Positions 11,401 to 35,612 of a stretch of 46,537 bases of DNA are shown here, in pieces. The first letter of the stretch is position 1; each line of letters starts with the position of its first letter. The DNA comes from a virus (taxonomy: Duplodnaviria; Caudoviricetes), in IMG/VR virus record IMGVR_UViG_3300049925_000152, positions 1-46,537 of that record; one strand, given 5' to 3'. The notes under the pieces are model-generated. The model made no database searches, was not told the origin of the DNA, and saw only the letters and a list, made by a program, of their open reading frames with translations. Position numbers and translations under genes: made by a program.

Positions 11401-12415
11401 CCTCACACAGACAACATCAGGCATCGAGCCCGCATTCCTCCTCTCCTACAAGCGCCGCCGCAAGATCACTCAGGGTGACACTAAGTCAGTTGCTGACTAC
11501 GTGGATCCAATGGGCGACAAGTGGCAGGAATACACTGTCTACCACCACTGGTTCAAGAAGTGGATGGACGTCACGGGCAAGTCTGATCCCAAGGAGAGCC
11601 CATACTGGGGAGGCACTGCCAACGACATCGACTGGGAGAAGTCTGTCGAGATCCAGGCAGCAGCTCAAAAGTGGATCGACCACAGCATCAGCAAGACGTG
11701 CAACCTTCCAAATGCAGCCACAAAGGAGACTGTCAACAACGTCTACGTGAAGGCATGGAAGATGGGTTGCAAGGGATTCACAGTCTATCGAGACGGTTGC
11801 AGGACAGGAGTTCTAGTCTCAACGGAAGAGAAGAAAGAGGAGAAGCCCAAGGCAGCAGATACGCATCCCAAGCGCCCCAAAGAGCTGCCATGTGACATTC
11901 ACCGTGTCAACGTGAAGGATGAGTCAGGCAAGGCACAGTCGTGGATGGTGCTAGTGGGTCTCAAGGACGGTGCGCCATACGAAGTCTTCAGTGGGCTTGC
12001 AAACCACATCGTTGTACCTAAGAAGACAAAGTCAGGTACCATGGTCAAGAACGGAAAGGTGAACGGACTCTCGACGTACAACCTTCGTGTTCCCGTCGGT
12101 GCTGATGATGAGATCCTCTTCAAGGACGTTGCGAACCTCTTTGCAAATCCAACGCAGGGTGCGTTCTCTAGGACGATCTCTCTGGCGCTTCGACACGGCG
12201 TGCCCGTCAACTTCGTGGTGGACCAGCTCCAGAAAGATAAGGACTCTGACATGTTCACCTACGCCCGGTGCATCGCACGAGTCCTCAAGAGCTACATCCC
12301 AGACGGCACGAAGTCGACCACGGAGAAGAAGTGTAAGGAGTGCGGCAGCGACCAGGTCTTCTACATGGAAGGTTGCCTGACGTGCAGTTCTTGCGGCTCG
12401 TCAAAATGCTCATGA
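8498..12415 (+). CDS. nrdJ: class II (B12-dependent) ribonucleotide reductase with intein
   Basis: SNCFV, GGVG, RRGALM, TNP|CGEIPL, CRL, RRTGLG, APVGSIS, TSGIEP, TVYRDG; C-terminal CxxC...CxxC; no beta subunit nearby. Confidence 0.88.
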   Translation: MSLNESVVDYFGGDDLAADVFNKYALRDVNGNRIENLPTETFRRLAKEFARIEAKYPNPMSEDSIFELLDGFKKVVPQGSPLSGIGNPHQLQSLSNCFVIDQPHDSYGGILFADQEQVQIMKRRGGVGMDVSKIRPKGQPTTNAARTTDGIGVFMERFSNSTREVAQGGRRGALMLTIDCRHPEIETFIDIKRDLKKVTGANISIRFTDEFMQAVEHNQSFCLRWPVEAHPEDAEIVKMVDAKQVWDKFVDAAWAAAEPGALFWDTVVNQGVVDCYRDVGYKTISTNPCVTGDTEVMVADGRGFVAIKTLADEGNDVPVFACDEGGKLVIKTMRNPRVTGKNAQIYRVTVEGGHSFRATGNHKMIMRDGSEREVKDLIAGDSLWISHHVNGKFNEAMPGLRASTSQDYSWIRSGGNRTWKSAHRIMWEHFNGKKIGKDEVIHHADFNSLNNHPSNLVLMSKEDHDRFHADLIKGENNPIFKIKADPVRFAEYSEKMSKSVGGMNNPRAYEVSNDSIIDAIAKLTININRRVTRSDWTDFAKENNFPIFLNDFRLDGKSFSEVCYEIAIFCGINSDICDMDPRVARRALHAESEGYRWQVASGDLHVEKTCEWCKTPFWSEYDKREVSFCGHSCANKYANRRAGKNQRRSSTLRAMHASNGEKKRQEQLEVFTSLRSTLGRVPLAQEWETACKKSGCSSRTGTQHGFASWSELKTAAESFNHRVVSVELAGNEDVYNGTVDDVHTFCFRVGSEEIERFRNKADLILASRQCGEIPLSPYDSCRLMVVNLTSFVLNPFTSNAKFDYDSFISVVGKAQRLMDDLVDLEVECVDRILEKIENDPQPASVKQIERDLWNKIRNAGLNGRRTGLGITGLGDTLAGLNIRYGSQLSIEMTEAIYQHLAMGAHRSSCQLAAERGAFPVFDYSKEKDHPYLARVMSACGTETINMWQTTGRRNIALTTTAPVGSISCLTQTTSGIEPAFLLSYKRRRKITQGDTKSVADYVDPMGDKWQEYTVYHHWFKKWMDVTGKSDPKESPYWGGTANDIDWEKSVEIQAAAQKWIDHSISKTCNLPNAATKETVNNVYVKAWKMGCKGFTVYRDGCRTGVLVSTEEKKEEKPKAADTHPKRPKELPCDIHRVNVKDESGKAQSWMVLVGLKDGAPYEVFSGLANHIVVPKKTKSGTMVKNGKVNGLSTYNLRVPVGADDEILFKDVANLFANPTQGAFSRTISLALRHGVPVNFVVDQLQKDKDSDMFTYARCIARVLKSYIPDGTKSTTEKKCKECGSDQVFYMEGCLTCSSCGSSKCS
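9362..10804 (+). mobile_element. 481-aa intein with HNH endonuclease at the RNR active-site NP|CGE
   Basis: Starts CVTGDTEV; block B ATGNHKM; HNH HRIMW..IHHADFNSLNNHPSNL..H; block F VYNGTVDDVHTF; ends ASRQ followed by Cys. Confidence 0.9.
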
Positions 12416-14151: not shown

Positions 14152-14510
14152 GCTCGGCGAAGGTAGAGCTGCTTGTTAAAGTAGTCTCATGGAGATTTTT
14201 CTCCATGCTCTATGGTTTTACGATACTTTACCTTTTTACCGCCTCAGCAGGAGAGTCAGCAGGTATTATCCTCTTAACAGGATCAACACTGACTCTCTTG
14301 CAGTGGGGTTATGAGATAATCTGGGACAAACACATTAGGAGTAAGTTACGCTATGCCTTTTCAAGACAACAAGGTAGAGTTGGTCGGCTGGTACGGTGGG
14401 GACGAGACACACGCGCTCTCGGCGTGGACGAGCACGAGCAGGGAGCTGTCGGAGGAGAAGCAAGCACGAATCCCCTCGCTCCTGAGAATGCTGGCAGAGA
14501 ATGGACATGA
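14148..14510 (+). CDS. small membrane protein (DUF2061-like), tail overlapping thyX
   Basis: KVVSWR, two hydrophobic helices, YEIIWDK; TTG overlaps the GS stop. Confidence 0.5.
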   Translation: MSSAKVELLVKVVSWRFFSMLYGFTILYLFTASAGESAGIILLTGSTLTLLQWGYEIIWDKHIRSKLRYAFSRQQGRVGRLVRWGRDTRALGVDEHEQGAVGGEASTNPLAPENAGREWT

Positions 14511-14985
14511 GACTCCATTTGAAAAGTCGAACATCCATTTCCTTGTAACAACAGACATCGCAACACACATACAGATCCTCAAGAGCAGGATAGGCACAAG
14601 CTGCAATTCCGAATCTGCCCGCTATAAAGAGCTCAAGGACGACAAGTACTACCTCCCGAAGGACTGGCCACTTGAGGAGCAGGCCCGGTACATCGCTTTC
14701 ATGGAGGACGCTCTCATGCGCTACCATGATACACTTGATCGTCTTGTCACGGGTGGGATGAGCCGCAAGCGAGCGAAGGAATCTGCTCGCTTCTACCTTC
14801 CATATGGTAACCAGATCACGGCCGATCTCATGTTCAACTGGCGCTCCTTCAACCACTTCCTGGGCCTGCGGATGAAGCCCGACGCCCAGCGTGAGATCTG
14901 CTGGCTTGCCGAAGAGATGCTTAAACAGGTTCGAGAGATTCCTGACAATCCGTTCAAGCACACGATCGAGGCATTTGGCTACTAG
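14353..14985 (+). CDS. thyX: flavin-dependent thymidylate synthase
   Basis: GHETPFE, KSRIGTSCNSESARY, ESARFYLP, NWRSFNHFLGLR, AQREI. Confidence 0.88.
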   Translation: MPFQDNKVELVGWYGGDETHALSAWTSTSRELSEEKQARIPSLLRMLAENGHETPFEKSNIHFLVTTDIATHIQILKSRIGTSCNSESARYKELKDDKYYLPKDWPLEEQARYIAFMEDALMRYHDTLDRLVTGGMSRKRAKESARFYLPYGNQITADLMFNWRSFNHFLGLRMKPDAQREICWLAEEMLKQVREIPDNPFKHTIEAFGY

Positions 14986-14987
14986 AT

Positions 14988-15015
14988 TGTAAAACTTAGG
15001 TGCGTACACTAAGAT
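14988..15015 (+). promoter_or_regulatory. promoter TGTAAA-N16-TAAGAT, leaderless
   Basis: GTG 15022 lies 7 nt after the -10. Confidence 0.55.
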
Positions 15016-15021
15016 AGATGC

Positions 15022-15441
15022 GTGTACGCACCTAAGTCACCATACAACCTGATCCAAGAAACAGTGCAGCACGATCCATGGCGAGTCCTGGTCGTCTGCA
15101 TTTTCTGTAATCTGACACGGCGTCTCACTGCAGAACCTTACATGTGGGAGTTCTTTCGTAGATGGCCCACAGCACAAGATGCATCCAACGCAGATCCTGA
15201 TGAGCTGCGATCGATGATAAGCATCTTAGGATTAGCAGACCGTCGTAGCAAGACGTTGATCAAGCTCTCGCAAGCATACGTGCAGTGGGACGGTGTCGAT
15301 GTAAAATCTCTACCAGGTGTAGGAGACTACGCTGCTGCTGCATACGATATCTTCTGCCTCCACCAGTGGGCGCAGATTCCAGAGCCTAAGGACGGTGCTC
15401 TGAAGAAGTATTGGAAGTGGATCAACAATGTTCACGAATAA
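15022..15441 (+). CDS. HhH DNA glycosylase, MBD4 catalytic-domain-like
   Basis: SPYNLIQE..HDPWRVLV..IFCNLT; LPGVGDYAAAAYDIFC; PKDGALKKYWKW. Confidence 0.8.
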   Translation: MYAPKSPYNLIQETVQHDPWRVLVVCIFCNLTRRLTAEPYMWEFFRRWPTAQDASNADPDELRSMISILGLADRRSKTLIKLSQAYVQWDGVDVKSLPGVGDYAAAAYDIFCLHQWAQIPEPKDGALKKYWKWINNVHE

Positions 15442-15455
15442 AAAGGAAAACGAAG

Positions 15456-16265
15456 TTGCCTGAGGGGCCTGAGGTCAAGATCGTCACTGACTCGCTTGAA
15501 AAGGCGCTGCTCGGTCGTACAGTAACTAAAATCATCTACCACGGAGGTCGTTACACAAAGCACGAACCTCCTGAGGGACACACAGAAATATCGTCTGTCC
15601 TACCCCAGAATGTGTCTGTTGTATCTTGCAAGGGCAAGTTTATATACATCACCCTTGAAGATGAGTGGTCAATCTGGAACACTCTGGGTATGACGGGAGG
15701 CTGGTCGAAGACAAAACAGAAGCACAGCCGTGCAGAGATCGTCCTCGATGGGGGTTCATCTGTCTTCTTCAACGACGCACGCAACTTCGGCACATTGAAG
15801 TACGTGCAGGGAAGCGCAGATCTCAGCGAAAAGCTGTCGTCGATCGGCCCAGACATGCTTGCTGAAGACGTCGCAGACACGCTGTTCATCTCACGTATGC
15901 GACGAAAGAACAAGCGGATCATCACAGAGAACCTCATGGACCAGAGCGTCATCTCAGGTGTGGGAAACTACCTGAAGTCTGAGAGCCTCTACTTTGCTGG
16001 CATCAATCCCGCTCGCGTCACACGTGATCTCACAGACGAAGATCTGACGCGTCTCAACGCGGTGATCAAGAAGACGATCCGGCAGTCATACACGTCTGGA
16101 GGCGCGACTATCTACACTTTCCAGAACTTTGAGGGTGAGAAAGGACAATACAGTAGACGCTTCGCTGTCTATAATCAAAGCAAGGATCCAGAGGGTCGTG
16201 ACGTTCTAAGTTTCACATCTCCCGAGGGCCGGACAACATTTTGGGTACCAGAGGCACAAACATGA
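15456..16265 (+). CDS. mutM: formamidopyrimidine-DNA glycosylase (Fpg/Nei family)
   Basis: TTG start gives N-terminal PEGPEV; LGMTG, DARNFG, LMDQSVISGVGNYLKSE, GRTTFW; zincless finger. Confidence 0.88.
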   Translation: MPEGPEVKIVTDSLEKALLGRTVTKIIYHGGRYTKHEPPEGHTEISSVLPQNVSVVSCKGKFIYITLEDEWSIWNTLGMTGGWSKTKQKHSRAEIVLDGGSSVFFNDARNFGTLKYVQGSADLSEKLSSIGPDMLAEDVADTLFISRMRRKNKRIITENLMDQSVISGVGNYLKSESLYFAGINPARVTRDLTDEDLTRLNAVIKKTIRQSYTSGGATIYTFQNFEGEKGQYSRRFAVYNQSKDPEGRDVLSFTSPEGRTTFWVPEAQT

Positions 16266-16489
16266 CATACAGACTCTCAGATGAGACAATCAGCCAGATC
16301 GCAAAGCTCCTCCAGATCGCAATCATCACAGGCACAGACATCGTCGACAATCTTCGAACGATTCGCCTCAAGTCAGATGACGGCGAGTTTCTTGATCCAA
16401 CTGCAGACTACCTCGACAACTTTGAGGCCAATCTCAATCGCATGATCGAGAACATGGCATCTCAAGATGACAACAACACAAACGAGTGA
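16262..16489 (+). CDS. hypothetical protein
   Basis: GAGG RBS, ATGA coupling to fpg. Confidence 0.7.
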   Translation: MTYRLSDETISQIAKLLQIAIITGTDIVDNLRTIRLKSDDGEFLDPTADYLDNFEANLNRMIENMASQDDNNTNE

Positions 16490-16494
16490 GAACG

Positions 16495-16869
16495 ATGGAC
16501 AAGCTCGATAAGATGTTCCAGATGCGTAAGGACTTCATGGCAGCTCTATCGGCTCATGTTCCTAATGCATATCCACAGCAACCTATCGATTTGAGTAGCA
16601 AGAAGTCACAGCAGCACTTCAGAGATCTTGCGCTACGCGGTGTTGAAGAGATCTTCGAGGCCCTTCAACACCTGAAGAATACAAAGCCACATCGTGTGAC
16701 AGAGATCACTGAGCCGGTCGATGTCGAGTCTTTCAAGGAGGAGATGGTTGATGCATTCAACTTCTTCTTCACGCTGCTCATCTTGATGGACGTCGAAGCA
16801 GAAGATCTATACGACGCTTTCCAGAAGAAAGACCAGATCATCCACGATAGGATTCGGAACAACTACTAA
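16495..16869 (+). CDS. all-alpha NTP pyrophosphatase (dimeric dUTPase / MazG / T4 gp56 dCTPase-like)
   Basis: EEIFEA..KNTKPH..EEMVDAFNFF..K...RIRNNY pattern. Confidence 0.7.
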   Translation: MDKLDKMFQMRKDFMAALSAHVPNAYPQQPIDLSSKKSQQHFRDLALRGVEEIFEALQHLKNTKPHRVTEITEPVDVESFKEEMVDAFNFFFTLLILMDVEAEDLYDAFQKKDQIIHDRIRNNY

Positions 16870-17810
16870 TGCTGTTTAAAACAATGATTGAGCGTCAGAA
16901 AGAGTTTTCTGATCTCTTCTTTGATTCCACTAAGTTTGACGATGCCAAGCGCGAGGAGATGACAAAGTCTTTCGCGCTTGCTCTTCATGCAGAAGTGGCC
17001 GACCTTGTCAGTTCGATCAACTTCAAGGATCACCACGCGAACAAGAAGACACCTGATCGTGAAAAGATTCTGTATGAGTCAATTGACACGATGCGGTATC
17101 TTTTCGCAATCATGAACACGTGGGGATTTAGTGCTGATGAGGTTGAGTCTGCATACAGTGATAAGGACACATACCTTCACACACGTCATAGAGTTGAAAA
17201 TGAGAAGTGGGACGGGCGCCCTGTCCTAATCGTCGACATCGACGATGTGATTGCACACTTCAGGAAGAACTACTTTGAGTGGCTCGATGAGAAGTACGGG
17301 ATAGTCATTCCTCAAGACTATCCAGAGTACTATGCATCAACACCGCTCAAAGAGAAGGGTGTCAATCCTGAGTCATCTTTTAAGGATTTCATCAGTGATA
17401 GAAAGCTTCGCACGATCGAAGTCATCGATGGAATGATCGAAGTCTTCAGAGAAGCAAGGCGTATGGGCTTTTGGGTCCAGCTGCTTACAGCACGTCCTGA
17501 CCAGAATCTGATCTGCCTCTACGACACATATCACTGGCTTGAGCGAGCAGGCGTTCCTTTTGACGGGCTGGCGTTCAGCGGTGAGAAGTATCGCTGGATC
17601 GTCATGAGTCAGTTCTACGGAAAAGTTGCTGCTTGTGTAGACGATTCACCAAAGCACTCTGCCGAGTACGCAAATCACGGCTTGCTTGTACTCTCACCGA
17701 CATTGTCGTATAATGATGCGTTGAAAGACGTAAAGAATGTTGTTCGTTATGATTCTACAACACAACTCCTGACTCATCTAACAAACCTCTACAAGGACTT
17801 TAAGAAGTAA
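16869..17810 (+). CDS. fusion of MazG/dUTPase-like domain and HAD 5'-nucleotidase-like domain
   Basis: N-terminal HAEVADL..LYESIDTMRY; C-terminal DIDDVI, LLTAR, VDDSPKH. Confidence 0.7.
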   Translation: MLFKTMIERQKEFSDLFFDSTKFDDAKREEMTKSFALALHAEVADLVSSINFKDHHANKKTPDREKILYESIDTMRYLFAIMNTWGFSADEVESAYSDKDTYLHTRHRVENEKWDGRPVLIVDIDDVIAHFRKNYFEWLDEKYGIVIPQDYPEYYASTPLKEKGVNPESSFKDFISDRKLRTIEVIDGMIEVFREARRMGFWVQLLTARPDQNLICLYDTYHWLERAGVPFDGLAFSGEKYRWIVMSQFYGKVAACVDDSPKHSAEYANHGLLVLSPTLSYNDALKDVKNVVRYDSTTQLLTHLTNLYKDFKK

Positions 17811-18760
17811 TGCCACAGAATCTTGACCTTCAGCCCATCACTCTCCCCATGGCAATCCGCTTCGGTGAGGAGCCTACCACCGAGTTCGTCAACAGTCTTG
17901 ATGCTCTCAAGCTTGAGCTTGTTGATGCACCTGATCCCAAGTCTATCCGGCAGGCAGTCTACTGCTTTGTCAAGTCGACCTGGGCTGACCAGCACGTTCC
18001 TTATCGTGATGCGACCGAGGCAGAGCTCTCTAAGACACTTGAAGACGTCTTCGCAGGCCGGGCGCTTCCAGCAGCAATGGAGCTGATCGGCCTCACCTTC
18101 CTTGTGGGCGGCATCGACACGCAGACTGTGACCCATCTCATCCGACACCGCGCAGGCTCTTTCGCAGCACAGTGCACCGGTGATCGTTGGCTCTCTCACG
18201 AGCGCAGCCTTGTTCCCGGTTCTATTCAGAACAGCCCGGAGTTCTACGCACGCTGGCAGGCGCACGTCCAGGAGGCGAAGCAGCTTTACACAGATATGGT
18301 CGACTCCAAGCAGATCAGCCTGATGGATGCTCGTCACGTCCTTCCCAAGTGCCTTGAGACCTTCTACTACATGCGCATGAACATTCGTGATGCATTCGGT
18401 TTCATCAAGCAGCGTCAGGACAAGCAGATCCAGCCCGAGGAGGATAACATGCTTGCTGCTCTCATGGCACGTGAGATCCTTCGTGTCTTCCCAGAGGCGC
18501 ACGTCGCGATCAATCTGCGTGAGCCTGCTTGGCACTACATCAAGACGTTCCGCAATGGTACTGGCACCAACCTCTACTGGCCTGACGAGGATAGCGAGAA
18601 GCATCTCACCTATCATCCCAACGACACGATCTACCAGGCGACTCGTGACGACATGAATGGAACTGCTGGCGGGGTCCCGCACTTCCGGAAGCTCTGGAAC
18701 GAGACTCTTGCTGAGATTGACACGATTGTGTCAAACTACAAGAACAGTCGCAGCATTTAA
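17810..18760 (+). CDS. divergent ThyX-like flavoprotein (second paralog)
   Basis: THLIRHRAGSFAAQCTGDR and DARHVLP resemble the ThyX RHRxxS and AR.xLP motifs; extended C-terminus. Confidence 0.65.
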   Translation: MPQNLDLQPITLPMAIRFGEEPTTEFVNSLDALKLELVDAPDPKSIRQAVYCFVKSTWADQHVPYRDATEAELSKTLEDVFAGRALPAAMELIGLTFLVGGIDTQTVTHLIRHRAGSFAAQCTGDRWLSHERSLVPGSIQNSPEFYARWQAHVQEAKQLYTDMVDSKQISLMDARHVLPKCLETFYYMRMNIRDAFGFIKQRQDKQIQPEEDNMLAALMAREILRVFPEAHVAINLREPAWHYIKTFRNGTGTNLYWPDEDSEKHLTYHPNDTIYQATRDDMNGTAGGVPHFRKLWNETLAEIDTIVSNYKNSRSI

Positions 18761-25045: not shown

Positions 25046-25489
25046 ATGAACAACGTCTATATCGCAAGCGGTTGGTTTTCTCCTGAGTGGCTACAGGAGG
25101 TCGAGGACATCAAGCAGGTTCTAAGTGAGCTTGATCTTGCTTACTTCTCGCCCAAGGATTACGCTATCGCAGAAGCGACGGCGTCCACTGACACGCAGAA
25201 GCAGATCTTCGATGGTAATGTCGAACATCTTGACAAGTGTGACTGGATGATCTGCAACACACGAAACAAGGACATGGGTAGCATCTGGGAGGCAGGTTAC
25301 TTCTACGCACGCAACAAGCCCATCGTCTACTTCTGCGCAGGTCTTCCACCCGGTGCTAAGTTCAACCTCATGCTCTCAGCAAGCGGAGTTGCGGTCTGCA
25401 CATCTCTTGAAGATCTGCGAGAGTACCTCGCGCACAGCAAGCGCGAGGGTCGTCTTGTGACTCGCAACTACAGCGGTCTCATCGAGTGA
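25046..25489 (+). CDS. nucleoside 2-deoxyribosyltransferase / nucleotide N-glycosidase family
   Basis: VYIASGWF, FSP, DMGSIWEAGYFYARNKPI, FNLML; GGAGG RBS; TTGAAA-N17-TATAAT upstream. Confidence 0.8.
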   Translation: MNNVYIASGWFSPEWLQEVEDIKQVLSELDLAYFSPKDYAIAEATASTDTQKQIFDGNVEHLDKCDWMICNTRNKDMGSIWEAGYFYARNKPIVYFCAGLPPGAKFNLMLSASGVAVCTSLEDLREYLAHSKREGRLVTRNYSGLIE

Positions 25490-25535
25490 TAGGAAATGTG
25501 TGCTCCTGGAGGATAGTTATCTGCTAGGAGCACAC

Positions 25536-26249
25536 ATGCGCATGAATAGAAATGCCCTGAGGAATCTGATTCTCAGAGAGATGCATGATCACATGGTTGA
25601 CATGCCAGAGATCGAGCCAGAGATCGTTGACGACAATGATGACGTCGAGATGCCTGACGAAGACGAAGACGAAGACGAAGATGAAGTAACAAGCGTCAAG
25701 CCTGACGGTGGCATAGACTACGAGGACTCAGGAGCATATGAAGAGGCTGGAATGATCAAGTCCAATCTCTACAACATGGCAAAGAAGTCTCTCGATCTAC
25801 ACGACAAGATCGGTGACAATGATGATCTACCTGAGTGGGTGCAGGAGAAGATTGCAGTTGCTTCATACATGATCGACTGTGTGCATGACTATCTCTGCTA
25901 TGAGATGATCAAGGACGATCTCCACGAGAAGAAAGACGGACGCTCAAAGGCACGCAAGTACAAGGGTAAGGAGTACCACGCAACTCCTGCGATGGTCAAG
26001 GCAGTCAAGAAGGGTGCATCCTACAATCAGCTCGCAAAGCTTGCTAAGTGGGCCGATGAGCCTGCTGCTGTTGTTCAGGCTGCTAAGATTGTTGCAAAGG
26101 GTAAGCCTATGACACGCGACGACGAGGGTGAGCTTGATGAGGGTGAAGGCTGGAAGCCACTCCACCAGTCAACAGGCATCATGTTCTTCGAGGAGGACGA
26201 GGGAGCTGACTATCCAATGCCCAAGTCAAAGGCCAAGAAGCGCGGTTGA
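25536..26249 (+). CDS. acidic hypothetical (possible head/internal) protein
   Basis: AGGAG RBS before ATG 25536; (GACGAA)n poly-DE tract; DDLPEWVQEKIA segment. Confidence 0.7.
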   Translation: MRMNRNALRNLILREMHDHMVDMPEIEPEIVDDNDDVEMPDEDEDEDEDEVTSVKPDGGIDYEDSGAYEEAGMIKSNLYNMAKKSLDLHDKIGDNDDLPEWVQEKIAVASYMIDCVHDYLCYEMIKDDLHEKKDGRSKARKYKGKEYHATPAMVKAVKKGASYNQLAKLAKWADEPAAVVQAAKIVAKGKPMTRDDEGELDEGEGWKPLHQSTGIMFFEEDEGADYPMPKSKAKKRG

Positions 26250-26276
26250 GGCAGTTAAATAGCCAGCGGTCGCTGG

Positions 26277-26304
26277 TGTAAACAAGAAACCTCGGTACTA
26301 TAAT
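26277..26304 (+). promoter_or_regulatory. promoter TGTAAA-N16-TATAAT, leaderless
   Basis: Consensus -10; ATG 26311 lies 7 nt downstream. Confidence 0.7.
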
Positions 26305-26310
26305 GAGAGT

Positions 26311-27291
26311 ATGAAGATTCTCATCACTGGTCACCGAGGTTTCATTGCATCCAACCTTCCACGAGCTTTTGCCGATCTCGACATCGATGTCGTCGATCCA
26401 GGACAGCTTCGTCTAACACATAAGCTGCTGACAGGAGAGCACTGCGTCTATCGAAACAGTGAGGACGATTGGGCACGTGAGCTTAAGCGTCTAAACGTGG
26501 ATGTTGTGGTGCACAATGCAGCAGCTGTAGGCACAGACGTCGTAGCACTCAACCCTAATGAGTCGACGCTGACGAATGTGACAGGCGCGTACACAATCAG
26601 TCGCGCTGCTGAGAAGGTGGGAGCTGCTGTCCTCTTCCTCGGCACAACAGTGATCTATGATACCGATAGGTACCAGACATCTTGGATCGCAGAGCGTTCT
26701 GTCAACGGACCGAGGACACTTTACGGTTCTCTTAAGCTCGCAGGTGAGCACGTCGTCAGGTCACACTGCAGCAAGTGGTCGATCGTCCGTCCGCTCTTCT
26801 GTTACGGTGGCGTGGGTGACAACAACTCTCTGATTGCCAAGGGATTCTTCGGTGCTGCAAGCGGCAAGCAGCAGATCGACATGTTCCTCGATCCAAGCAA
26901 GATCAAAGACTACATGCATGTCGAGGACTTCTGTGACGCAGTTGCGACTGTGGTCGACAAGGAGCTCTGGAATGATGACTGGAATGTCGCCGCCGAGACG
27001 CCTGAGAACACAGGTAAGATCGTCGAGATGATGAGCAAGATCTCGTGCAAGGATCTAAAGGGTGTGGTAAAGTGGCACCCAGGAACCGACTACTTGGGTA
27101 ACCATCGTCTAAGCTCACAGAAGTTCAGGGATGCATCTGGTTGGTCACCGCGGTATGACCTATATGGTGGCTTGGAAAAGTCCTGGAATGACATCCAGCG
27201 CAATCTGGGTTCAACAGATTATAATCCCCTGCGTTACCTGGAAGATGCCAAGAAGCGTGGCGTCGATCTCACACAGTTCTTCAACCGGTGA
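26311..27291 (+). CDS. NAD-dependent epimerase/dehydratase (extended SDR)
   Basis: ILITGHRGFIAS, VHNAA, YGSLK (YxxxK), DYMHVEDF. Confidence 0.85.
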   Translation: MKILITGHRGFIASNLPRAFADLDIDVVDPGQLRLTHKLLTGEHCVYRNSEDDWARELKRLNVDVVVHNAAAVGTDVVALNPNESTLTNVTGAYTISRAAEKVGAAVLFLGTTVIYDTDRYQTSWIAERSVNGPRTLYGSLKLAGEHVVRSHCSKWSIVRPLFCYGGVGDNNSLIAKGFFGAASGKQQIDMFLDPSKIKDYMHVEDFCDAVATVVDKELWNDDWNVAAETPENTGKIVEMMSKISCKDLKGVVKWHPGTDYLGNHRLSSQKFRDASGWSPRYDLYGGLEKSWNDIQRNLGSTDYNPLRYLEDAKKRGVDLTQFFNR

Positions 27292-27346
27292 AATAAAAAT
27301 AAACCTAGTGTGGGCGTGAAAGCCTATATAAGAATATGAGGAAAAC

Positions 27347-28258
27347 ATGCCCACACTAGTTATTAATCAATGTGTAATTTGTGATAAAAGTTTTGAAGTA
27401 ACTTATAAAAAGCGTAGCCAGCAGACATGCGGAAAAGATTGTAGCTACTCATTACGCAGCCAGACAAGAAACACACAACATGCCCCGTTTGAAAAGATTT
27501 GTGTAACATGTGATAAGTCTTTTAACGACACAAGCAAGAAAAAGCTAGTTACTCGTTGCACAAATTGTATAAAGTCGGGAAGCGTTCAAAAAAGAAAAGA
27601 AAATGGTTCATACAGGCGCACAGATGCTCAAAATGATAAACTAAGTCAGACTCTCAAAGAAAAATATGCAAATGGGTGGAACCCAAACACTGAAGAGCAT
27701 CGCGCAAAATTATCAATTTTGATGAAAGATCGTTGGCAATCGGGTGAAATGGCTGCGATGACACGAATTTCATGCCAAGAAAAGTATGGTGCAGATCATT
27801 GGACAAAGTCTAGCGAAGGTAAATCAACATTAAGCAAAATGTCTAGTGGGAGAAAATTCTCCACCGTAGCAAGACAGAATATGTCAAATGGGCATGCACG
27901 CAGCTTTCTCGCAGGAAGAAAATGCCATACTCGAGGAAAAGGCGGCATAAGACTCGATATCGGTTTTTATGTAAGAAGCCGATGGGAAGCAAATTTTGCC
28001 AGAATCTGCATCTATGAAAAATGGAATTTTGAGTATGAACCGTGCTCATTTGATCTAGAAGATCATAAATTCTATATTCCTGATTTTGTCGTCGAAGGTG
28101 AGTTCTATGAGCTGAAAGGTTACATGAGCAATTCTGCTAGAGAAAAGCTTGATATTTTCATGAAAATGTACCCAAATGTTTCGTTGAAAATCATCGGTCC
28201 CGTTGAGTATAATAATCTAAAGCTAAAATACCAACAATTAATTAACTGGGAAGAATAA
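27347..28258 (+). CDS. free-standing homing endonuclease-like protein (Zn ribbons plus PD-(D/E)xK nuclease)
   Basis: CVICDKSF..CGKDC, CVTCDKSF..CTNC; RSRWEANFA..YEP..YIPDF..ELKGY; markedly AT-rich. Confidence 0.75.
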   Translation: MPTLVINQCVICDKSFEVTYKKRSQQTCGKDCSYSLRSQTRNTQHAPFEKICVTCDKSFNDTSKKKLVTRCTNCIKSGSVQKRKENGSYRRTDAQNDKLSQTLKEKYANGWNPNTEEHRAKLSILMKDRWQSGEMAAMTRISCQEKYGADHWTKSSEGKSTLSKMSSGRKFSTVARQNMSNGHARSFLAGRKCHTRGKGGIRLDIGFYVRSRWEANFARICIYEKWNFEYEPCSFDLEDHKFYIPDFVVEGEFYELKGYMSNSAREKLDIFMKMYPNVSLKIIGPVEYNNLKLKYQQLINWEE

Positions 28259-28259
28259 C

Positions 28260-28340
28260 ATGTCGAATTGGAGCTCTGAGAAGCCGGTTCGTGCGCCTAG
28301 CCGGTTCGTCGGCTTGCATGCGCACTCCGGCTTCTCCTGA
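28260..28340 (+). CDS. dnaE: DnaE piece 0: 26-aa N-terminal PHP segment MSNWSSEKPVRAPSRFVGLHAHSGFS
   Basis: FVGLHAHSGFS is the PHP HxH motif missing from the 28351 ORF; ATG 1 nt after the upstream stop; ends in TGA. Confidence 0.8.
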   Translation: MSNWSSEKPVRAPSRFVGLHAHSGFS

Positions 28341-28350
28341 ATAATCTACT

Positions 28351-29895
28351 ATGGATGGACTCGGGTATCCTGCGCAGCACATTGATTTCGTCCTCAAGAA
28401 CGGCATGGATGCCTGGGCACTGACTGACCACGGCAACGGTAGCGGACTCGCCCACGCCCACTCTCATGCCAAGAAGATGCAAAAGGCAGGACAGAAGTAT
28501 CGACAGCTTAACGGCGTCGAGTTCTACTTCGTTCCTTCCCTGAAGAACTGGGCTATCCAGTATCAGGATCACAAGGACGCAGTTGCAGCAGCTCGTTCTG
28601 AGAAGAAGGCGAAGGAAGCCACTGACATCGACGCAGATGACGAGGCAGGTGCTGGTCACATCATCGAGAACGAGGATGAGACCAAGGACTCATCTGCACT
28701 CGCAGTCAAGGATGACGAGTGGAAGCGACGTTACCACCTGGTTGTCATCGCAAAGAACAAGCAGGGTCTCTCCAATCTCTTCACGCTGGTCAAGAAGTCA
28801 TTCAAGGACGGCTACTACCGGTTCCCGCGTATTGATTTCGACATGCTCAAGGAGCACGGTGAAGGACTAGTGGTCAGCACAGCTTGCATCGGTGGCATCA
28901 TGGCGAACCGTGTCCTCCGAGGCCAGGCGATGCAGAAGTCTGACGCAGAGATCCAGCACGAGCTCAAGAACCTGACAGATCGGTTCGTCGACGCAGTGGG
29001 CCTTGAGAACTTCAACCTTGAGCTCCAGTTCAACAAGCTTCAGGCGCAGCATGATGTCAATCGTCATCTGATTCAGCTTCACAGGAGCACAGGCGTCCCG
29101 CTAGTGGCGACTTGCGACTCTCACTATCCCACACCCGACAAGTGGAAGACACGCGAGCTCTACAAGAAGTTGGCATGGATGAACGCGAAGGAGGAGCCCA
29201 AGCCCCTCCCGACGTTTGATGAGCTGAAGTGCGAGCTCTATCCTAAGAACGCAGAGCAGATGTGGGAGGAATACAAGCGACATGTTCCTGAGCATGAGTT
29301 CTATGCAGGAACTGAGGAGTTGGTCCGAGACGCGATCGAGCGGACACACGACATCGCCTGGCAGCAGTGTGAGGACGTCTGGGTCGACACGAAGGCCAAA
29401 CTTCCCGTCTTTGACACACCTGAGAAAACAGGCTTTCAGCAGCTTGTCGAGCTCGTCAGGACAAAGATGATCGAGATGGGCCTCCATGAGAAACCTGAGT
29501 ATGTCGAGCGCGTGAAGGAAGAGCTTGCAGACATCAAGTACCTCGGGCATGCATCTTACTTCTTGACAATGAATAAGATCTTCCACAAGGCATCTGAGCG
29601 CACGCTCCTCGGGCCGGGAAGAGGATGTTTTATTCCTGGCACAAGAGTCAAGATGTCTGACGGTCTTTTTGTTGAAATTGAAAATATTAAAGTGGGTGAT
29701 GCCGTAATCGATGCGTACGGAAATACACAAAGTGTTATTAACTTGCTCCGGTACGAGATCGATGAAGAAGTCATAACATTGACATTTGATGATGGAAAGT
29801 CTATAACATGCACCAAAGATCATGAGTTTCTGACACAGCGTGGTTTTGTTAAGGCATGTGAACTTACTGACGACGACGTAATCGCAGATGTTTAA
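28351..29895 (+). CDS. dnaE: DNA polymerase III alpha piece 1 (PHP to GPGRG) fused to split intein N-half IntN1 (29626-29892)
   Basis: ALTDHG, GVEFY, YHLVVIAKN, PRID, STACIGG, TCDSHY, GPGRG|CFIPGTRV...CTKDHEFLT then stop. Confidence 0.92.
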   Translation: MDGLGYPAQHIDFVLKNGMDAWALTDHGNGSGLAHAHSHAKKMQKAGQKYRQLNGVEFYFVPSLKNWAIQYQDHKDAVAAARSEKKAKEATDIDADDEAGAGHIIENEDETKDSSALAVKDDEWKRRYHLVVIAKNKQGLSNLFTLVKKSFKDGYYRFPRIDFDMLKEHGEGLVVSTACIGGIMANRVLRGQAMQKSDAEIQHELKNLTDRFVDAVGLENFNLELQFNKLQAQHDVNRHLIQLHRSTGVPLVATCDSHYPTPDKWKTRELYKKLAWMNAKEEPKPLPTFDELKCELYPKNAEQMWEEYKRHVPEHEFYAGTEELVRDAIERTHDIAWQQCEDVWVDTKAKLPVFDTPEKTGFQQLVELVRTKMIEMGLHEKPEYVERVKEELADIKYLGHASYFLTMNKIFHKASERTLLGPGRGCFIPGTRVKMSDGLFVEIENIKVGDAVIDAYGNTQSVINLLRYEIDEEVITLTFDDGKSITCTKDHEFLTQRGFVKACELTDDDVIADV

Positions 29896-29958
29896 GATTG
29901 TGACAACTTGTTGATCTACGACCGGGTACCATCATAGTTATACTTGAGGTATGACGAA

Positions 29959-30981
29959 ATGCCTGCGAAGTATGACAGTGAAATCAAAGATAAGCTAAAA
30001 AATCTTATAAAGCAGCATGTCTTGATGATTGGTAAAGATTCTTTCGTAGAAGACAATGTGCTTGCATCTATTGCAAAACAAGAAGATGTAACAACTGACA
30101 TTCTGTATCGAATGATTAGTTCAAAGAACTTAAACATTAAGAGATTTTGCTATCTTGATGACCTAGATGCAAACACACCTACTAAGATAAGCATAGTTTC
30201 AAACTGCAGCCTGTGCGGATGCTGCTACGCAATGCTTGTCATAAAGTTCTTAGGAAGAACTTATAAAAATAACAATCTGTGCCAGACACACTATGTTTCA
30301 AGTGTTTGTAAGACTGACACCTGGAAAAGAAAAAACAGCGATGCGCAGAAAATTGCGCAAAACAAGCAAGAAACAAAAGAAAAACAGTCTCTTTCGCAGA
30401 AGCGTCGATTTTCAAATGAAGAGATTAGAGAGCACTATAGACGTAACACAAAAGCGATGTGGGAAAACATCGATTATCGAAGAAAAGTTTCAAACGGTAA
30501 TCGTCAAAAATGGGAAGATGCTGATTATGTTGAGCGTGTTACGAGTAAATCACATGGCGCATACCGATCCACCTACCAGGGTTATTATGAGGGATTGCGA
30601 TATCAAAGTCTTGCAGAGCTTTCTTTCATCTTGTGGGCAAAAGACAACAAGCACAAGATAGTACGGTTCAATTTGCCGGGCATTCCCTGGGAAGATGAGA
30701 ATCAAATTGAACGTCTTTATTTTCCTGATTACATCATCAATGACACGACGATCATTGAAGTAAAATCAGGTCACAAGTGCTATGGATTAGACCCAAATAA
30801 TGTAAAAACAACGCAAGAAAAGTATAATGCACTTGTAAGATTTTGTAGCGACACGCACTATTCTCCAAGACTTGTCTTTTTAGCTGATCTAAACGATAGA
30901 AATATTATCAAAAGGGCAAAAAGCATCCATGAGCAAAATTGTCTCAAGAAAGTTTCACCACATGATGGGAACTGTCCATGA
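29959..30981 (+). CDS. free-standing endonuclease (TnsA / PD-(D/E)xK-like) between split-intein halves
   Basis: YQSLAELSF..YFPDYII..IIEVKSG; CxxC; AT-rich; GAGGT before ATG 29959. Confidence 0.75.
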   Translation: MPAKYDSEIKDKLKNLIKQHVLMIGKDSFVEDNVLASIAKQEDVTTDILYRMISSKNLNIKRFCYLDDLDANTPTKISIVSNCSLCGCCYAMLVIKFLGRTYKNNNLCQTHYVSSVCKTDTWKRKNSDAQKIAQNKQETKEKQSLSQKRRFSNEEIREHYRRNTKAMWENIDYRRKVSNGNRQKWEDADYVERVTSKSHGAYRSTYQGYYEGLRYQSLAELSFILWAKDNKHKIVRFNLPGIPWEDENQIERLYFPDYIINDTTIIEVKSGHKCYGLDPNNVKTTQEKYNALVRFCSDTHYSPRLVFLADLNDRNIIKRAKSIHEQNCLKKVSPHDGNCP

Positions 30982-31429
30982 TCTCACTGTAGAGAATAGT
31001 CATTCTTACAATGTCGAAGGTAAAGGCGTCCACAACTCAGCGCCAGGTAGCTTGATCAACTACATTCTAGGTGTAACGCAGATCGATCCTCTTCCATACG
31101 GTTTGCTGTGGAATCGATTTCTCGGTCGACACCGTTGTATGCAGCCTGATACGCTCGTCATTATGGAAGATGGCGTCAAGAAGATCAAAGATCTTGAGCT
31201 TGGCGACAAAGTTCTGACGTCATCAGGCACACATGAACAAGTTCTTGATAAAGAAGACGACACGAACCACACATTCAAGGCGACAATCAAGACTCCGAGA
31301 CAAGATTTTGTGTGCTCACCTAATCACCGCTGGCTTGTCAAACGTGATGGTGAAATCATCGAAGTGCTTACGGCAGAAATCGTCAAGGGCGACAAACTTC
31401 TATTCCTCACAGGAAAGCCTGATGCTTAA
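30929..31429 (+). CDS. dnaE: DnaE piece 2: IntC1 (30929-31036) + 33-aa extein (31037-31135) + IntN2 (31136-31426)
   Basis: [56 protein letters not shown]...CSPNHRWLV then stop. Confidence 0.9.
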   Translation: [166 protein letters not shown]

Positions 31430-33692
31430 CGTGTCTTACGACGAAGTCGAGATTGATGAAATCATCTTTAGCGCATGCAATGAACAATTAATCGATATTG
31501 AGGTCGAAAATGATCACACATTTTTTGTCTCATCGACTGGGACCGACTTTGCGCTTACTCACAATACATCTTGGCCTGACATTGACTCCGATGCAGGTGA
31601 TCGTGACGTTCTTATTGACGCGGCACGTGAGCTCTTCGGTGACGATGCAGTCATTCCTGTCTCCAACTTCAACACTCTGAAGCTGAAGTCTCTTGTCAAG
31701 GATGTCGCTAAGTTCTTCAATGTCCCATTTGACGAGGTCAATGCAGTCACTGGACCGCTCCAGGACGAGGTCATGCCTCACGCGAAGGATGATGACCAGG
31801 AAAAGTCAGTCTTCGTTCTGAAGCACGATGACTGCATGAAGTACTCACCTGCTTACAATGCGTTCATGACGAAGTATCCCGAAGTGGAGGAGCACGTTAA
31901 TGCGCTCTTCATGGAGAATCGATCTATCGGGCGACATGCGGGTGGTGTTCTTGTGGCAGAACCCAAGGCTCTGGCTGAAGGCATGCCCATCATCGGTGTG
32001 CGCGGAGAGCTGCAGACACCGTGGACCGAGGGTATGAACTTCCGTAATCTTGAGGACAACGGATTCCTCAAGTTCGACTTCCTCGGCCTGACACTACTCA
32101 AGGACGTAGAGAACTGCATCAAGCGAATCTTGATCAAGCAGGGTGTGAAGAACCCGACATTCAGCCAGATCAAGGACTTCTTCGATGAGCATCTCAACTG
32201 TCGAACAGTCAAGCAGGATGACCAGCAGGTCTGGAAGCATGTCTACCACGAGGGTCGATTCGTTGGCGTCTTCCAGTTCACTGCAGACGGTGCAAGAAAG
32301 TTCTGCCTTGAGGCAAAACCCACGAACATCGGTGAGTTGGCAGCTCTGACTGCAATCTATCGACCGGGTCCTCTCAAAGCGAACGTCCATAAGCTCTATG
32401 TCCAGGCAAAGAAAGACGCCTCGAAGATCAAGTACGATCACCCTGTCATTCAGGATGTCCTTGGACCTACCTTCGGCTATGTCGTCTTCCAGGAGCAGTT
32501 CATGATGCTGGCGCAGAAACTCGCAGGTTTCTCGCCTGGTGAGGCTGACCAGCTTCGTAAGACTCTCGTTAAGAAGTCTCTGGACACGCTGGGCAAGAAG
32601 TCTTCTGAGAAGGAGGCAGCACGGAAGCAGTTCATCGATGGTGCGTTGGCACTTCATGGCGTGCCTGAGAAGGTGACTGGTCCTCTCTGGGACACGATCG
32701 AGGCATTTTCAGTCTACGGGTTCAATAAGTCTCACTCAGTCTCCTACGCAATCGACTCTTACTACGCAGGATGGCTCCACACACACTATGAGAAAGAGTG
32801 GTTGGCAACAATCCTGCAGTCTGAAACAGGTAATCCTAAGCTGCTTGCCAAGGCGATCAACGAGATCAAGCAGATTGGATATAAGTTCTCGCAGGTTGAC
32901 ATCAACTACTCGGGCACAGAGTGGACGTTCTCTGAAGAGATTCAGGCATTTGTTCCTCCGCTGACGTCAGTCAAGGGCCTCGGTGATGCAGCAGTTAGTG
33001 AGATCCTCTCTAATCGACCATATCGAGCGCTTGATGATCTCCTCTTCGACGCCGACGGTGAGTGGCGTCATTCCAAGCTGAACAAGAGCTGTCTTGAATC
33101 GCTAATCCTCACAGAGAGCCTCGGATCACTTGAAGAGTTCAAGACAGAGCGTCTCAGCAACCACAACCAGCTGCACAAGATCGTCATTGATAACTACGAC
33201 ACACTACGTAAGGGTCGAACCGGCATGACTAAGACCGCGACCAAGAAGTGGGTCAAGGAGCATGGAAAAGAGCCTGTCATCATCGACAAGCTGATCGAAG
33301 AGACTGCTGATGTCCAAGACTGGTCTCGCTATGAGAAGATCAGGAACTTTGTTGAGATCTTGACAACAGCATCAGAAGAGCTTCTATTCCCGCCGCCTGT
33401 CATGACTAAGATCGAGCGTTCTAACGTCCCATCAGCAATGCAGATCAAGCCCGGCCAGCGCGGCGTCGTGTGGTTCTGTGCCCAAGATTGGGTCAAGAAG
33501 CAGACCAAAAATGGAAAGACTTTCTATACGGTCCACGCAATGGACAACAACAGCGACATCGCGAGGATCCGCGCATGGGGCACATTTAAAGAGGAACCGG
33601 AGAAATACACTATGTGGCTTGCTGAGGTAGAATACGATGCAAACTGGGGCATGTCAACTTCAGCAATGAAGATGCGAAAGATCGAGGTGTGA
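31422..33692 (+). CDS. dnaE: DnaE piece 3: IntC2 (31422-31565) + polymerase core and C-terminus
   Basis: AGGAAAG then ATG 31422; [59 protein letters not shown]. Confidence 0.92.
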   Translation: [756 protein letters not shown]

Positions 33693-33693
33693 T

Positions 33694-34602
33694 TTGAAGT
33701 TCAATCTTAAGACAGTGCTTCTTGAGGGTGTCGACTGCAGTGGAAAGACCACACTATTTAGAGAGCTGCACAAGGCAACAGGATTTAAGTGGAACATCCA
33801 CGATAGAAGCACACTTTCCATGCTTTGCTATGCAGTCATGTATGATCGTGATGTCACACACTGGAGAAAGCTCCTACAGGAGGAGCTAAGCGATCTCAAC
33901 AACGTCATAGTTGTTCTGCAGCCACCAATCGAGGTGATCAAGACACGACTTGCTTCGCGAGGTGATGAGTTCCAAGATCTTGATTCTATTGTGAAGTTAT
34001 ATAACATCTTCGAGGCTGAGCTGACAAATCTCGGCCAGTTTCCAAATGTTCTTGTCAGTCGTCAGGCAAGCGCAGACAGTGAAATGATCGCAAGGTGGAT
34101 ACTCGGATATGAGCGGCAGACTTACAGTCGTCTTGCCGGACTTGTCTATGATCACGCAAAAGTGAATGTCACGGATGAGACGATCTTCCTAAAGATGTCA
34201 TGGGAAGATGATGACTTCAAGACGCTGAGCACGAATGCACTTTTCTATGAGCCTGAAGTGACTTACTACGATGAGACACGGAACAAGCTTGTTGAAAAGA
34301 TCGGTGCAGAGATTGATGGACGAAATGAGTATGAGTCAAAGCAGGGACTCGACTCAAGACGTTTTGTCCTCTCACAGGAATCCTGCATTTCCTATGCACA
34401 CTTCATGTTCAGGAACGGCATTCTTCATGCAAACATCGTGTGTAGATCTTCAGAAGTGTCAAGAATCTTTCCGAATGACATACACTTTATCGCGAGCCTT
34501 GGCAAAGTTGCAAGAAGCGCAATCGGTCTTGATGATGATGTCCCGGTCAGGTTCCATCTCACACTTGACTCTGCACATGTAATCTTCCAGAAAACACATT
34601 AA
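33694..34602 (+). CDS. dNMP kinase-like domain fused to a thymidylate synthase / dCMP hydroxymethylase-like domain
   Basis: LEGVDCSGKTT P-loop and HDRS; C-terminal SRRFV..ESCISYAHF..CRSSEVSRIFPNDIHF..SAHV. Confidence 0.65.
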   Translation: MKFNLKTVLLEGVDCSGKTTLFRELHKATGFKWNIHDRSTLSMLCYAVMYDRDVTHWRKLLQEELSDLNNVIVVLQPPIEVIKTRLASRGDEFQDLDSIVKLYNIFEAELTNLGQFPNVLVSRQASADSEMIARWILGYERQTYSRLAGLVYDHAKVNVTDETIFLKMSWEDDDFKTLSTNALFYEPEVTYYDETRNKLVEKIGAEIDGRNEYESKQGLDSRRFVLSQESCISYAHFMFRNGILHANIVCRSSEVSRIFPNDIHFIASLGKVARSAIGLDDDVPVRFHLTLDSAHVIFQKTH

Positions 34603-34619
34603 ACTTACGCGAGGTAAAA

Positions 34620-35612
34620 ATGAAGAGAGCATTAGTGACAGGTGGCGCGGGATTCATCGGATCTAACTTGACCCATGCGCTTGTGAACGATGATTGGGTT
34701 GTTGATGTCGTAGATGATATGTCAAGTGGTCACCTTACACAGCTCGATGGACTCAACTATCGTGTTTTCCTACCTGGCATGTCTGAGATCTATGAGATGC
34801 AGAAGACACGCGGGAGTGATGAGGTCTTTGTGCATGAGTGCGATTTTTCTCACCCAGTCATTCTAGAGAAGATCGCTAGCAAGCATTATGACGTCGTCTT
34901 CCACCAGGCAGCAGTACCACGCGTATCCTACTCAGTTGAAGAGCCCGTTCTGACAACAGACGTCAATCTGCTTAGAAGTGTTGAGCTTCTACGTGCTTGC
35001 GTGGGTAATGTATCACGTGTCGTTGTTGCATCAACTTGCGCGGTCTACGGTGACACCGAATCGCTTCCAACGTCTGAGAACGCACCACATAAACCAAAAT
35101 CACCGTACGCTCTCCAGAAGAGCACACTTGAGAAATACTGCACACTGTTCTCAGATCTTTATCAACTAGATACAGTCTGTCTCCGTTACTTTAATGTTTT
35201 TGGACCAGGTCAGTATGGAGACTCACCTTACTCAACAGCAGTTGCTGCATGGTGCGATGCAATCAAGAACGGTAGACCGCTTCGGTCGGACGGTGACGGT
35301 TCGCAGTCAAGAGACATGTGCTATGTTGATAATGTGACATCAGCAAACATCCTCGCTGCAAAATCTAACATGAAGATGACCGGAAATGTCTACAACATCT
35401 GCAGCGGTTCTAGAGTTGAGAATCGGCAGATCCTGGCGTTCTTGAAGGACAAGTTCACCTCAATCGAGGTAACAAGTGCGCCGTGGCGCCCGGGTGATAT
35501 AATGCACACACAAGGAGACTGTTCGTTGGCACACAAGGAACTAGGTTATGAGCCCAGCATCTCTTTCTGGGATGGGCTTGAGAAGACACTCGCATGGTGG
35601 GAGATCAAGTGA
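34620..35612 (+). CDS. NDP-sugar epimerase (GalE/WbpP-like)
   Basis: TGGAGFIGS, FHQAA, SPYALQK, LRYFNVFGP, GDGSQSRD. Confidence 0.9.
   Translation: MKRALVTGGAGFIGSNLTHALVNDDWVVDVVDDMSSGHLTQLDGLNYRVFLPGMSEIYEMQKTRGSDEVFVHECDFSHPVILEKIASKHYDVVFHQAAVPRVSYSVEEPVLTTDVNLLRSVELLRACVGNVSRVVVASTCAVYGDTESLPTSENAPHKPKSPYALQKSTLEKYCTLFSDLYQLDTVCLRYFNVFGPGQYGDSPYSTAVAAWCDAIKNGRPLRSDGDGSQSRDMCYVDNVTSANILAAKSNMKMTGNVYNICSGSRVENRQILAFLKDKFTSIEVTSAPWRPGDIMHTQGDCSLAHKELGYEPSISFWDGLEKTLAWWEIK

Follow-up and report, generated by a model that had tools for sequence, protein, structure and literature searches.

The dnaE gene of an uncultured freshwater phage, carried by the 46,537-nt virus record IMGVR_UViG_3300049925_000152 (called here the window, i.e. 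the whole stretch of DNA that was analysed), is interrupted within its PHP metal-binding motif (HxH..DG) by 10 extra nucleotides beginning with a stop codon. We propose, with a probability of roughly 0.8, that this gap is crossed by a programmed ribosomal bypass carried by a homing-endonuclease cassette, in the manner of T4 gene 60/MobA but with a different target, nuclease and RNA layout. The gap, an RNA hairpin, an internal Shine-Dalgarno (SD) site, the linkage to a nuclease gene and the insertion site can be read directly from the sequences, and it is from these that we infer the hop itself.

In the window, the first open reading frame (ORF1, 28260..28340, + strand as are the other dnaE, nuclease and intein features given below) is a remodelled DnaE start (MSNWSSEKPVRA.. 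vs MSIIRP.. in intact relatives). From ATG 28260 it encodes MSNWSSEKPVRAPSRFVGLHAHSGFS, 26 codons up to the predicted take-off codon TCC (28335..28337, Ser26). TGA (28338-40), ATAA (28341-44), the predicted landing codon TCT (28345-47), ACT and ATG 28351 then follow in this order, the 10-nt coding gap being 28338..28347. ORF2 (28348..29895) contains the remaining PHP domain and the start of the DnaE polymerase domain, with an intein N-half from 29626 at its end (Pfam PHP, DNA_pol3_alpha and intein matches). The frame after the gap is +1 relative to ORF1 and has its own TAA at 28342-44, which would halt both a +1 shift and a -2 slip (at TTC-TCC); the break and its frame are thus exactly as described in the original prediction. 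Intact relatives read HAHSGF-S-TMDG at this position, which is the contiguous motif that had been expected, and the blastn alignment of the window with the unbroken locus L003 contains exactly 10 gap positions in 1325 columns. The unbroken locus L001 aligns without gaps to DnaE1 FVHLHNHTEYSMLDG, and the window gap falls between the HxH pair and the Asp. Both HxH histidines (28317-19 and 28323-25) are in ORF1 together with the first PHP strand, and a protein begun at ATG 28351 would lack all of these; the remaining PHP ligand motifs (TDHG, GVEFY, YHLVV, STACI and CDSH) are found in ORF2. We take H14 of the DnaE PHP domain to be a ligand. An assembly artefact, the first concern for such a break, is ruled out by the same gap in contigs from other studies (X5, X6, X7 and a 40,715-nt contig of X13), which cross it without indels; an identical gap is also present in X1 (depth 21.9), the possible source run, and in X3, from the same sample. 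According to PMC5636811, H16 and D23 are zinc ligands of the DnaE PHP domain (here and below, what we take from published work is limited to the available part of each source). Five related records all contain a T4-type gp23 capsid gene.

Relatives were collected in two ways. Protein searches of IMG/VR, not selected for a stop codon (one of them covering the best 80 of 581 matches, from 24 of 64 parts), gave 97 loci corresponding to 92 distinct contigs, 80 unbroken and 12 gapped. Ten gapped contigs are interrupted as in the window (site A, after HxHSxF-S) and two after HxH-S (site B); they represent seven gap sequences, and the stop directly follows a TCN codon in all 12. A pattern search (motif plus stop) retrieved 29 IMG/VR loci, all of them DnaE, and 112 metagenome loci, of which 53 are DnaE. 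The other 59 were not anchored to DnaE and, L159 apart, were dropped as apparent chance matches or other proteins, as were the single match of a pattern scan of genome contigs (L245, a chance hit outside dnaE) and 3 of the 6 matches to a site-B pattern, which are not dnaE. L159 is an 8-nt gapped dnaE in which the conserved Asp after the gap is changed to Gly, and it was kept outside the final set. Including the window, the site-A set comprises 55 distinct gapped alleles with 35 gap types and was compared with 73 unbroken alleles. The stop in the A site is TAA, TAG or TGA in all types, a property selected by the pattern except in the 12 contigs above. The site-B elements (L060/L129, L080/L127 and L132) have a gap of 38 or 42 nt after HxH-S with a 10-12 bp hairpin inside; a 5' hairpin again ends at the take-off codon, and 10-12 nt remain once the inner hairpin is looped out.

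The RNA preceding the gap folds into a 59-nt nested hairpin (28278..28336) whose 3' arm ends on the take-off codon, as had been predicted (-36.8 kcal/mol, pair probabilities mostly 0.9-1.0). For the region 28260-28360 the fold z-score is -3.22, and 1 of 200 shuffles was equally good. When the 75 nt ending at the Ser codon were folded (40 shuffles each), the median energy was -29.2 kcal/mol in the 55 gapped vs -10.0 in the 73 unbroken alleles, and a z-score below -2 was found in 51/55 vs 5/73. The stem closes on the take-off codon throughout, with a variable hairpin length (partner at -56 to -71). Among 19 distinct arm pairs, 202 of 228 positions are paired vs 76% when arms are exchanged between types, and double-sided (compensatory) changes occur in five columns, a count that leans toward structure because the register was taken from the folds. 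With the DnaE start rewritten, the sequence of the 5' arm is new. Downstream folds, considered as a possible 3' barrier to slippage, are weak (-11.7 kcal/mol in the window) and do not surpass those of unbroken alleles.

Just 5' of the hairpin, ORF1 contains an SD-like GGAG (28270..28273). A counterpart (GGAG, GAGG or GGGG, 9-14 nt 5' of the take-off partner) exists in 52 of the 55 gapped alleles, always downstream of an in-frame start and in three codon phases (24/16/12), and its position tracks the hairpin length (rho 0.92, 12 distinct pairs). SD-like motifs were found in 31 of the 73 unbroken alleles, all 31 located 7-16 nt before a start codon. In 38 of 52 folds the SD of gapped alleles pairs within 2 nt of the landing codon; this pairing is weak in the window itself, where it is seen in one fold and absent from another. 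Two unbroken alleles, L075 and L095, retain a hairpin-forming leader and an SD-like site and are possibly clean losses of the gap.

The take-off and landing codons carry a second signature. In the window, TCC and TCT are readable by one tRNA. Over the 35 types, the landing triplet is TCN in 17 and ACC, ACT, GCC, GCT, ACG or TTG in the other 18, and the third bases of take-off and landing (pyrimidine, Y, or purine, R) are Y/Y in 22, R/R in 10, R/Y in 3 and never Y/R. The 18 non-TCN landings, with 11 Y/Y and 7 G/G, include no discordant third base. Take-off and landing also switch together within one leader family (L136, L216 and L233 with TCC; L058 and L151 with TCG), and nucleases that are sisters in the nuclease tree (L058/L136 and L120/L102) differ by such a switch. 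This covariation is predicted by re-pairing of a retained tRNA-Ser and not by an excision of RNA after TCN. The aligned landing beats every earlier triplet in 24 of 35 types, and the gap filler contains 2 C in 187 nt, a depletion that would avoid early re-pairing. L052/L105/L116 read exactly TCG TAG TCG.

Immediately upstream of the gapped gene, a free-standing gene (27347..28258, 303 aa) encodes the putative homing endonuclease of the cassette, with an N-terminal CxxC region and a C-terminal T7 endonuclease I-like PD-(D/E)XK domain. A profile of 16 of its homologues matches T7 endonuclease I structures (E 5.5e-10), and PHROG endonuclease matches were also obtained for the gene. The gene has a GC content of 0.377 vs 0.52-0.55 in the flanking genes and is missing from L001-L006. 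The left end of the insert (27292..27346) follows the stop of an epimerase gene; L003 similarity ends at 27296, and the AATAA at 27292-96 is repeated at 28254-58 ahead of the new ATG. The insert starts at the AATAA before the ancestral ATG, and no orphan remnant of the old start is present in the window. Such remnants (e.g. ..FVGLHAHSTF then stop) exist at 14 of the 55 gapped loci vs 0 of the 73 unbroken ones, 250-1170 nt upstream and usually right before the nuclease (34/55 had 1300 nt upstream). Since they are cut at the PHP motif, the element entered there and brought its own replacement start. Using a profile built from 24 homologues, a nuclease was found directly upstream at 31/55 gapped, 2/73 unbroken and 0/3 site-B loci (of the 31 matches, 22 were in the profile and 9 were new), the gapped and unbroken sets coming from different searches and not being independent samples. 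In their tree, nucleases cluster according to leader type, while the gap state is scattered on the DnaE tree: in this quick tree of 118 rows (two from site B and 116 left after collapsing 150, with a minimum of 150 aa past the junction), gap state changes 22 times, at least 13 of them forced by well-supported branches, and the closest DnaE relatives of the window are unbroken. Comparison of loci thus suggests that nuclease and gap form one cassette replacing the sequence it splits. The original prediction had proposed a minimal bypass element in DnaE; the bypass finds support here, while the element would not stand alone but would form the end of a nuclease cassette with a replacement start. 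The nuclease gene upstream, the internal GGAG and the two split inteins further along dnaE had no place in that prediction. As a separate observation, the unbroken dnaE of a close relative is preceded by another, different ORF (L007:2208-2918, 237 aa), whose own start, we presume, resembles GIY-YIG nucleases.

Among cultured phages, 9 weak partial nuclease matches were obtained in 50,697 records, none of those listed being annotated beside dnaE. Five cultured dnaE starts were read, of 331 matches: LilyPad, Dorin, GMA6 and LuckyLeo are unbroken, and Gordonia phage Xenia2 (PP725409) is gapped. Xenia2 has TTC TCC TAG GTG GCC TAC at the same dnaE site, a 9-nt gap, with an HNH gene directly upstream of dnaE, and its dnaE is annotated from after the gap. 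The TCC to GCC pair, found after the third-base rule was derived, agrees with it. In Xenia2, ORF1 spans only 13 codons, and pairing is predicted between the SD that initiates it and the take-off region.

Taken together, these features are consistent with the following mechanism. After translating the 26-codon replacement start, the ribosome would stall with the stop codon in its A site and UCC paired to peptidyl-tRNA-Ser. Codon pairing would then be released, and the hairpin, re-zipping as the mRNA exits the ribosome, would drive a forward slide; because its 3' arm reaches right up to the take-off codon, the hairpin could close fully only after a slide of about 10 nt. The tRNA would re-pair at UCU and decoding would resume at ACU (Thr), giving ...HAHSGF-S-TMDG. 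The SD, drawn to the ribosome by the closed hairpin, may set the stopping point; this is the least supported step, and the SD could alternatively be a relic start site or merely a structural partner. By analogy with T4 MobA, the element may spread by nuclease cleavage of unbroken dnaE at or near the motif, the gap making its carrier immune. One complete genome (239,550 nt) that carries a gapped allele yielded a single match to DnaE and none to family B polymerases. No suppressor tRNA or recoded stop was seen among the tRNAs of G001, G004 and G005; the tRNA-Ser(GGA) of G004 is uninformative, the take-off codon of G004 being TCG.

Four other explanations were weighed. The one that survives best, which we nevertheless regard as very improbable, is that the gap is a micro-intron, removed at the RNA level through a cut-and-join activity, of the host or of the phage, that recognises the long duplex and its bulge. 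Indeed, in many alleles pairing of the 5' arm continues across the gap, with compensatory changes and a bulge of 1-2 nt at take-off, the SD pairing described above comes close to the landing codon, and excision needs no perfect landing codon. Excision does not, however, predict an in-frame stop, the covariation of take-off and landing or the depletion in C, and the gap lengths of 5-12 nt with a 3' end that is not fixed also speak against it. The window has no Rfam match at gathering score, and at the gap no group I or group II core was matched in Rfam and no bulge-helix-bulge was seen by eye in the folds. Five records, including one complete genome, gave no match to RtcB or tRNA-intron endonuclease (PF01974, PF01139), host enzymes being outside this search.

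Slightly less probable again is a gene in pieces, in which the 26-aa peptide would be synthesised separately and would complement in trans a second protein initiated past the gap, at ATG 28351. This ATG is two codons past the landing site, two split inteins already divide dnaE, and MobE-split NrdA is a case of assembly from pieces. The restart codon is nevertheless peculiar to few alleles: an ATG occurs at the landing codon or the next two codons in only 5 of the 55, GTG or TTG in 5 more and none of these in 45. A conserved Asp three codons past the gap would be lost by any later restart, the junction at 28338 has no intein or interaction tail, and the landing covariation is left unexplained. 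The preference of the original prediction for a bypass over a split peptide is therefore upheld by the scarcity of restart ATGs, the use of all frames, the compensated hairpin specific to gapped alleles and the landing covariation.

That the hairpin and SD stimulate an ordinary frameshift or readthrough of the stop, the motif tolerating a few extra residues, seems to us still less likely. Internal SDs and 5' structures are known frameshift stimulators, the resume frame is free of a second stop in 29 of the 35 types (6 have one), and unbroken alleles with one extra residue exist. The site-A hops, however, measure 5, 6, 8, 9, 10, 11 and 12 nt and fall in all three frames, so that no single frameshift or readthrough rule can serve all types and the one conserved RNA layout would have to go with three different events. 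Both +1 and -2 shifts meet a stop in the window, L008, L150 and L154 types, L200 and L233 have tandem in-frame stops, and 2-4 extra residues between HxH and Asp were found in 0 of 73 unbroken alleles. The least probable of the four is that the N-terminal piece is simply lost and the PHP exonuclease dead, or the gene a pseudogene, with another polymerase in use: PHP is inactive in some DnaE proteins, the window has a weak family A polymerase gene and L159 lacks the Asp, but variation in the codons downstream of the gap is concentrated at third positions (0.18/0.12/0.49), the ligand motifs including HxH are retained, the replacement start with its hairpin is conserved across many lineages, and most alleles have no restart codon.

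Several observations also weigh against a nuclease-carried bypass. The site-A set was mostly gathered by the TCN-plus-stop pattern and its lineages are related, so that the counts overstate independence. Of the 35 landing triplets, 18 match the take-off codon at two of three positions only, a score that some 19% of nearby triplets reach as well; in 14 types the aligned landing is strictly the best match and in 7 it is tied, and the 2-nt end match could stem from how the insert arose. With two-of-three matches so common and the landing strictly best in so few types, geometry and not pairing would have to select the site. In 8 of 52 gapped alleles the SD has an in-frame GTG or TTG 7-16 nt downstream and could be an ordinary start site, and L101, L149 and L231 are gapped without hairpin and SD. 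No nuclease match was found at 24 of the 55 gapped alleles (13 of the 55 had at most 333 nt upstream). L150 and the X5 joint are gapped and lack the nuclease, whereas L067 and L070 have one directly upstream of an unbroken dnaE. Finally, given the weak family A polymerase match at 549-1721, the phage may not need this DnaE. Concerning the individual exceptions, L149, L231 and L101 have 5- and 8-nt gaps without strong hairpin or SD (L231 still with an upstream nuclease) and may use another route or be decaying; the motif region of L067 and L070 is divergent (DGLGQP, DGLGHP), and these loci are possibly immune by sequence change in place of a gap.

The proposed bypass can be compared with several known systems. 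As in T4 gene 60/MobA (bioRxiv 10.1101/2022.08.31.505936), a nuclease gene lies directly upstream of a conserved replication gene interrupted at a metal-binding motif, the N-terminus is replaced (by MobA via its homologous region), a stop follows take-off, the landing is wobble-matched, a 5' hairpin is present, and the gap is retained after nuclease loss in some genomes. The target is, however, the PHP motif of dnaE and not a topoisomerase (Topo2L), and the nuclease is T7 endonuclease I-like where MobA is HNH. Take-off is at Ser and not at Gly/Asp, gaps are of 5-12 nt compared with 20-50, and 18 of 35 landings fail to match at the first or second position. The RNA layout differs as well: the site-A gap contains no hairpin, whereas the T4 take-off stem-loop carries the take-off codon on its 5' side; the take-off codon is at the 3' base of the 5' stem, which in T4 is 9 nt upstream; and the SD is 5' of the stem, 66-83 nt upstream, in place of the T4 mini-SD 5-7 nt before landing. 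No KKYK nascent-peptide motif was found in the ORF1 sequences inspected (26 aa in the window). The T4 parallel drawn originally thus holds for the matched codons, the stop after take-off and the 5' stem-loop, and fails for the layout, which is unlike T4 and has no gap hairpin.

The terminase bypass of Streptomyces phage Hau3 (Antonov et al. 2023, PMC10732093) also has a 10-nt gap and, as proposed, a 5' stem-loop with a flanking SD 5' of the gap. In E. coli it functions with UAA as the A-site codon, and its junction peptide was detected by mass spectrometry. In contrast with dnaE, its natural trigger is a rare UUA codon and its proposed role regulatory; the likeness concerns gap size and the presence of a 5' stem and SD as proposed there, and the available part of that paper mentions no nuclease cassette. 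The Magnusiomyces mitochondrial byps are likewise mobile bypassed inserts, some with two-of-three landing matches, but they measure 27-55 nt, have an unused sense codon in the A site and are crossed by mitochondrial ribosomes; the site-B types (38 and 42 nt, hairpin in the gap) are closer to them in shape than the window is. Synthetic stop-hops (Atkins et al. 2016, PMC5009743) also use matched codons flanking a stop, as in L052/L105/L116, and are low-level and unprogrammed, unlike the bypass proposed for dnaE. According to the same review, no natural in-frame stop hop was then known, and L052 is a candidate. Dassa et al. 2009 (PMC2677866) describe fractured genes in which split inteins accompany a free-standing endonuclease; this arrangement matches the downstream break of dnaE (29626-31036) and differs from the 28338 junction, which has no intein, intein matches occurring only from 29626. 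A model in which zipping at the exit drives bypass was proposed by Wills et al. (bioRxiv 10.1101/2024.12.09.627546), and a possible bypass beside an HNH gene was described in a tape-measure gene, not in dnaE (PMC4351075). No report of bypassing in dnaE was found in the literature searched, subscription journals being largely outside it, and the word 'polymerase' is absent from the available text of Manning and Atkins (bioRxiv 10.1101/2022.08.31.505936).

A broader reading, to which we give slightly less than even odds, is that these loci form a second, independent and widespread family of nuclease-carried bypass elements, in which the zipping of a long hairpin would drive a hop of 5-12 nt in any frame. 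In this joint reading, the SD bridged across the hairpin base, and not codon matching, would set the landing, and two base pairs would suffice on bacterial ribosomes, even with a first-position mismatch. The family would also comprise natural in-frame stop-hops (TCG TAG TCG); it would have struck the PHP motif at two different positions, would involve nucleases of two or more unrelated folds, and would extend to cultured actinophages with a mis-annotated polymerase start.

The rest of dnaE in the window is broken by two split inteins (29626-33692), a layout shared by L009, while L001-L007 are continuous. A 345-aa AT-rich ORF (29944..30981, GC 0.377, FPDY..IIEVK motif) lies between the halves of the first split intein and is probably a second endonuclease belonging to a separate element; its PHROG matches are weak and of unknown function only. 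Domain matches identify the intein C-half, a short extein and the second intein N-half at 30929-31429, then the intein C-half and C-terminal DnaE at 31422-33692. With the gap and the two split inteins, one dnaE would need a bypass plus two trans-splicing steps. Elsewhere, recA is interrupted by a group I intron (4600-5665; partial RF00028 matches at 4617-4851, E 3e-8, and 5633-5665) holding an AT-rich DUF559-type endonuclease ORF (4791-5678), and the ribonucleotide reductase gene (8498-12415) contains an intein with an HNH domain. Four regions around dnaE (549-1721, 14353-18760, 25046-27291 and 33694-35612) encode the weak family A polymerase match, two ThyX-like genes, a dUTPase/NT5C fusion, a nucleoside deoxyribosyltransferase, two NDP-sugar epimerases and a kinase. 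This gene set suggests DNA base modification.

The established cases of programmed bypassing by bacterial ribosomes are T4 gene 60 and homologous genes, with a further, supported case in one Streptomyces phage. If the present proposal is true, the 35 natural gap variants would constitute a ready mutant series to study what drives and stops a sliding ribosome, and it predicts, in line with the model of Wills et al., that zipping on the exit side alone can push a short hop. The whole signal is contained within about 100 nt, and the Gordonia phages Xenia2 (gapped) and LuckyLeo (unbroken) offer a cultured pair. Gene callers would truncate the proofreading domain of these polymerases, and bypassing would be, like introns and inteins, a repeated entry route of homing nucleases into essential genes.

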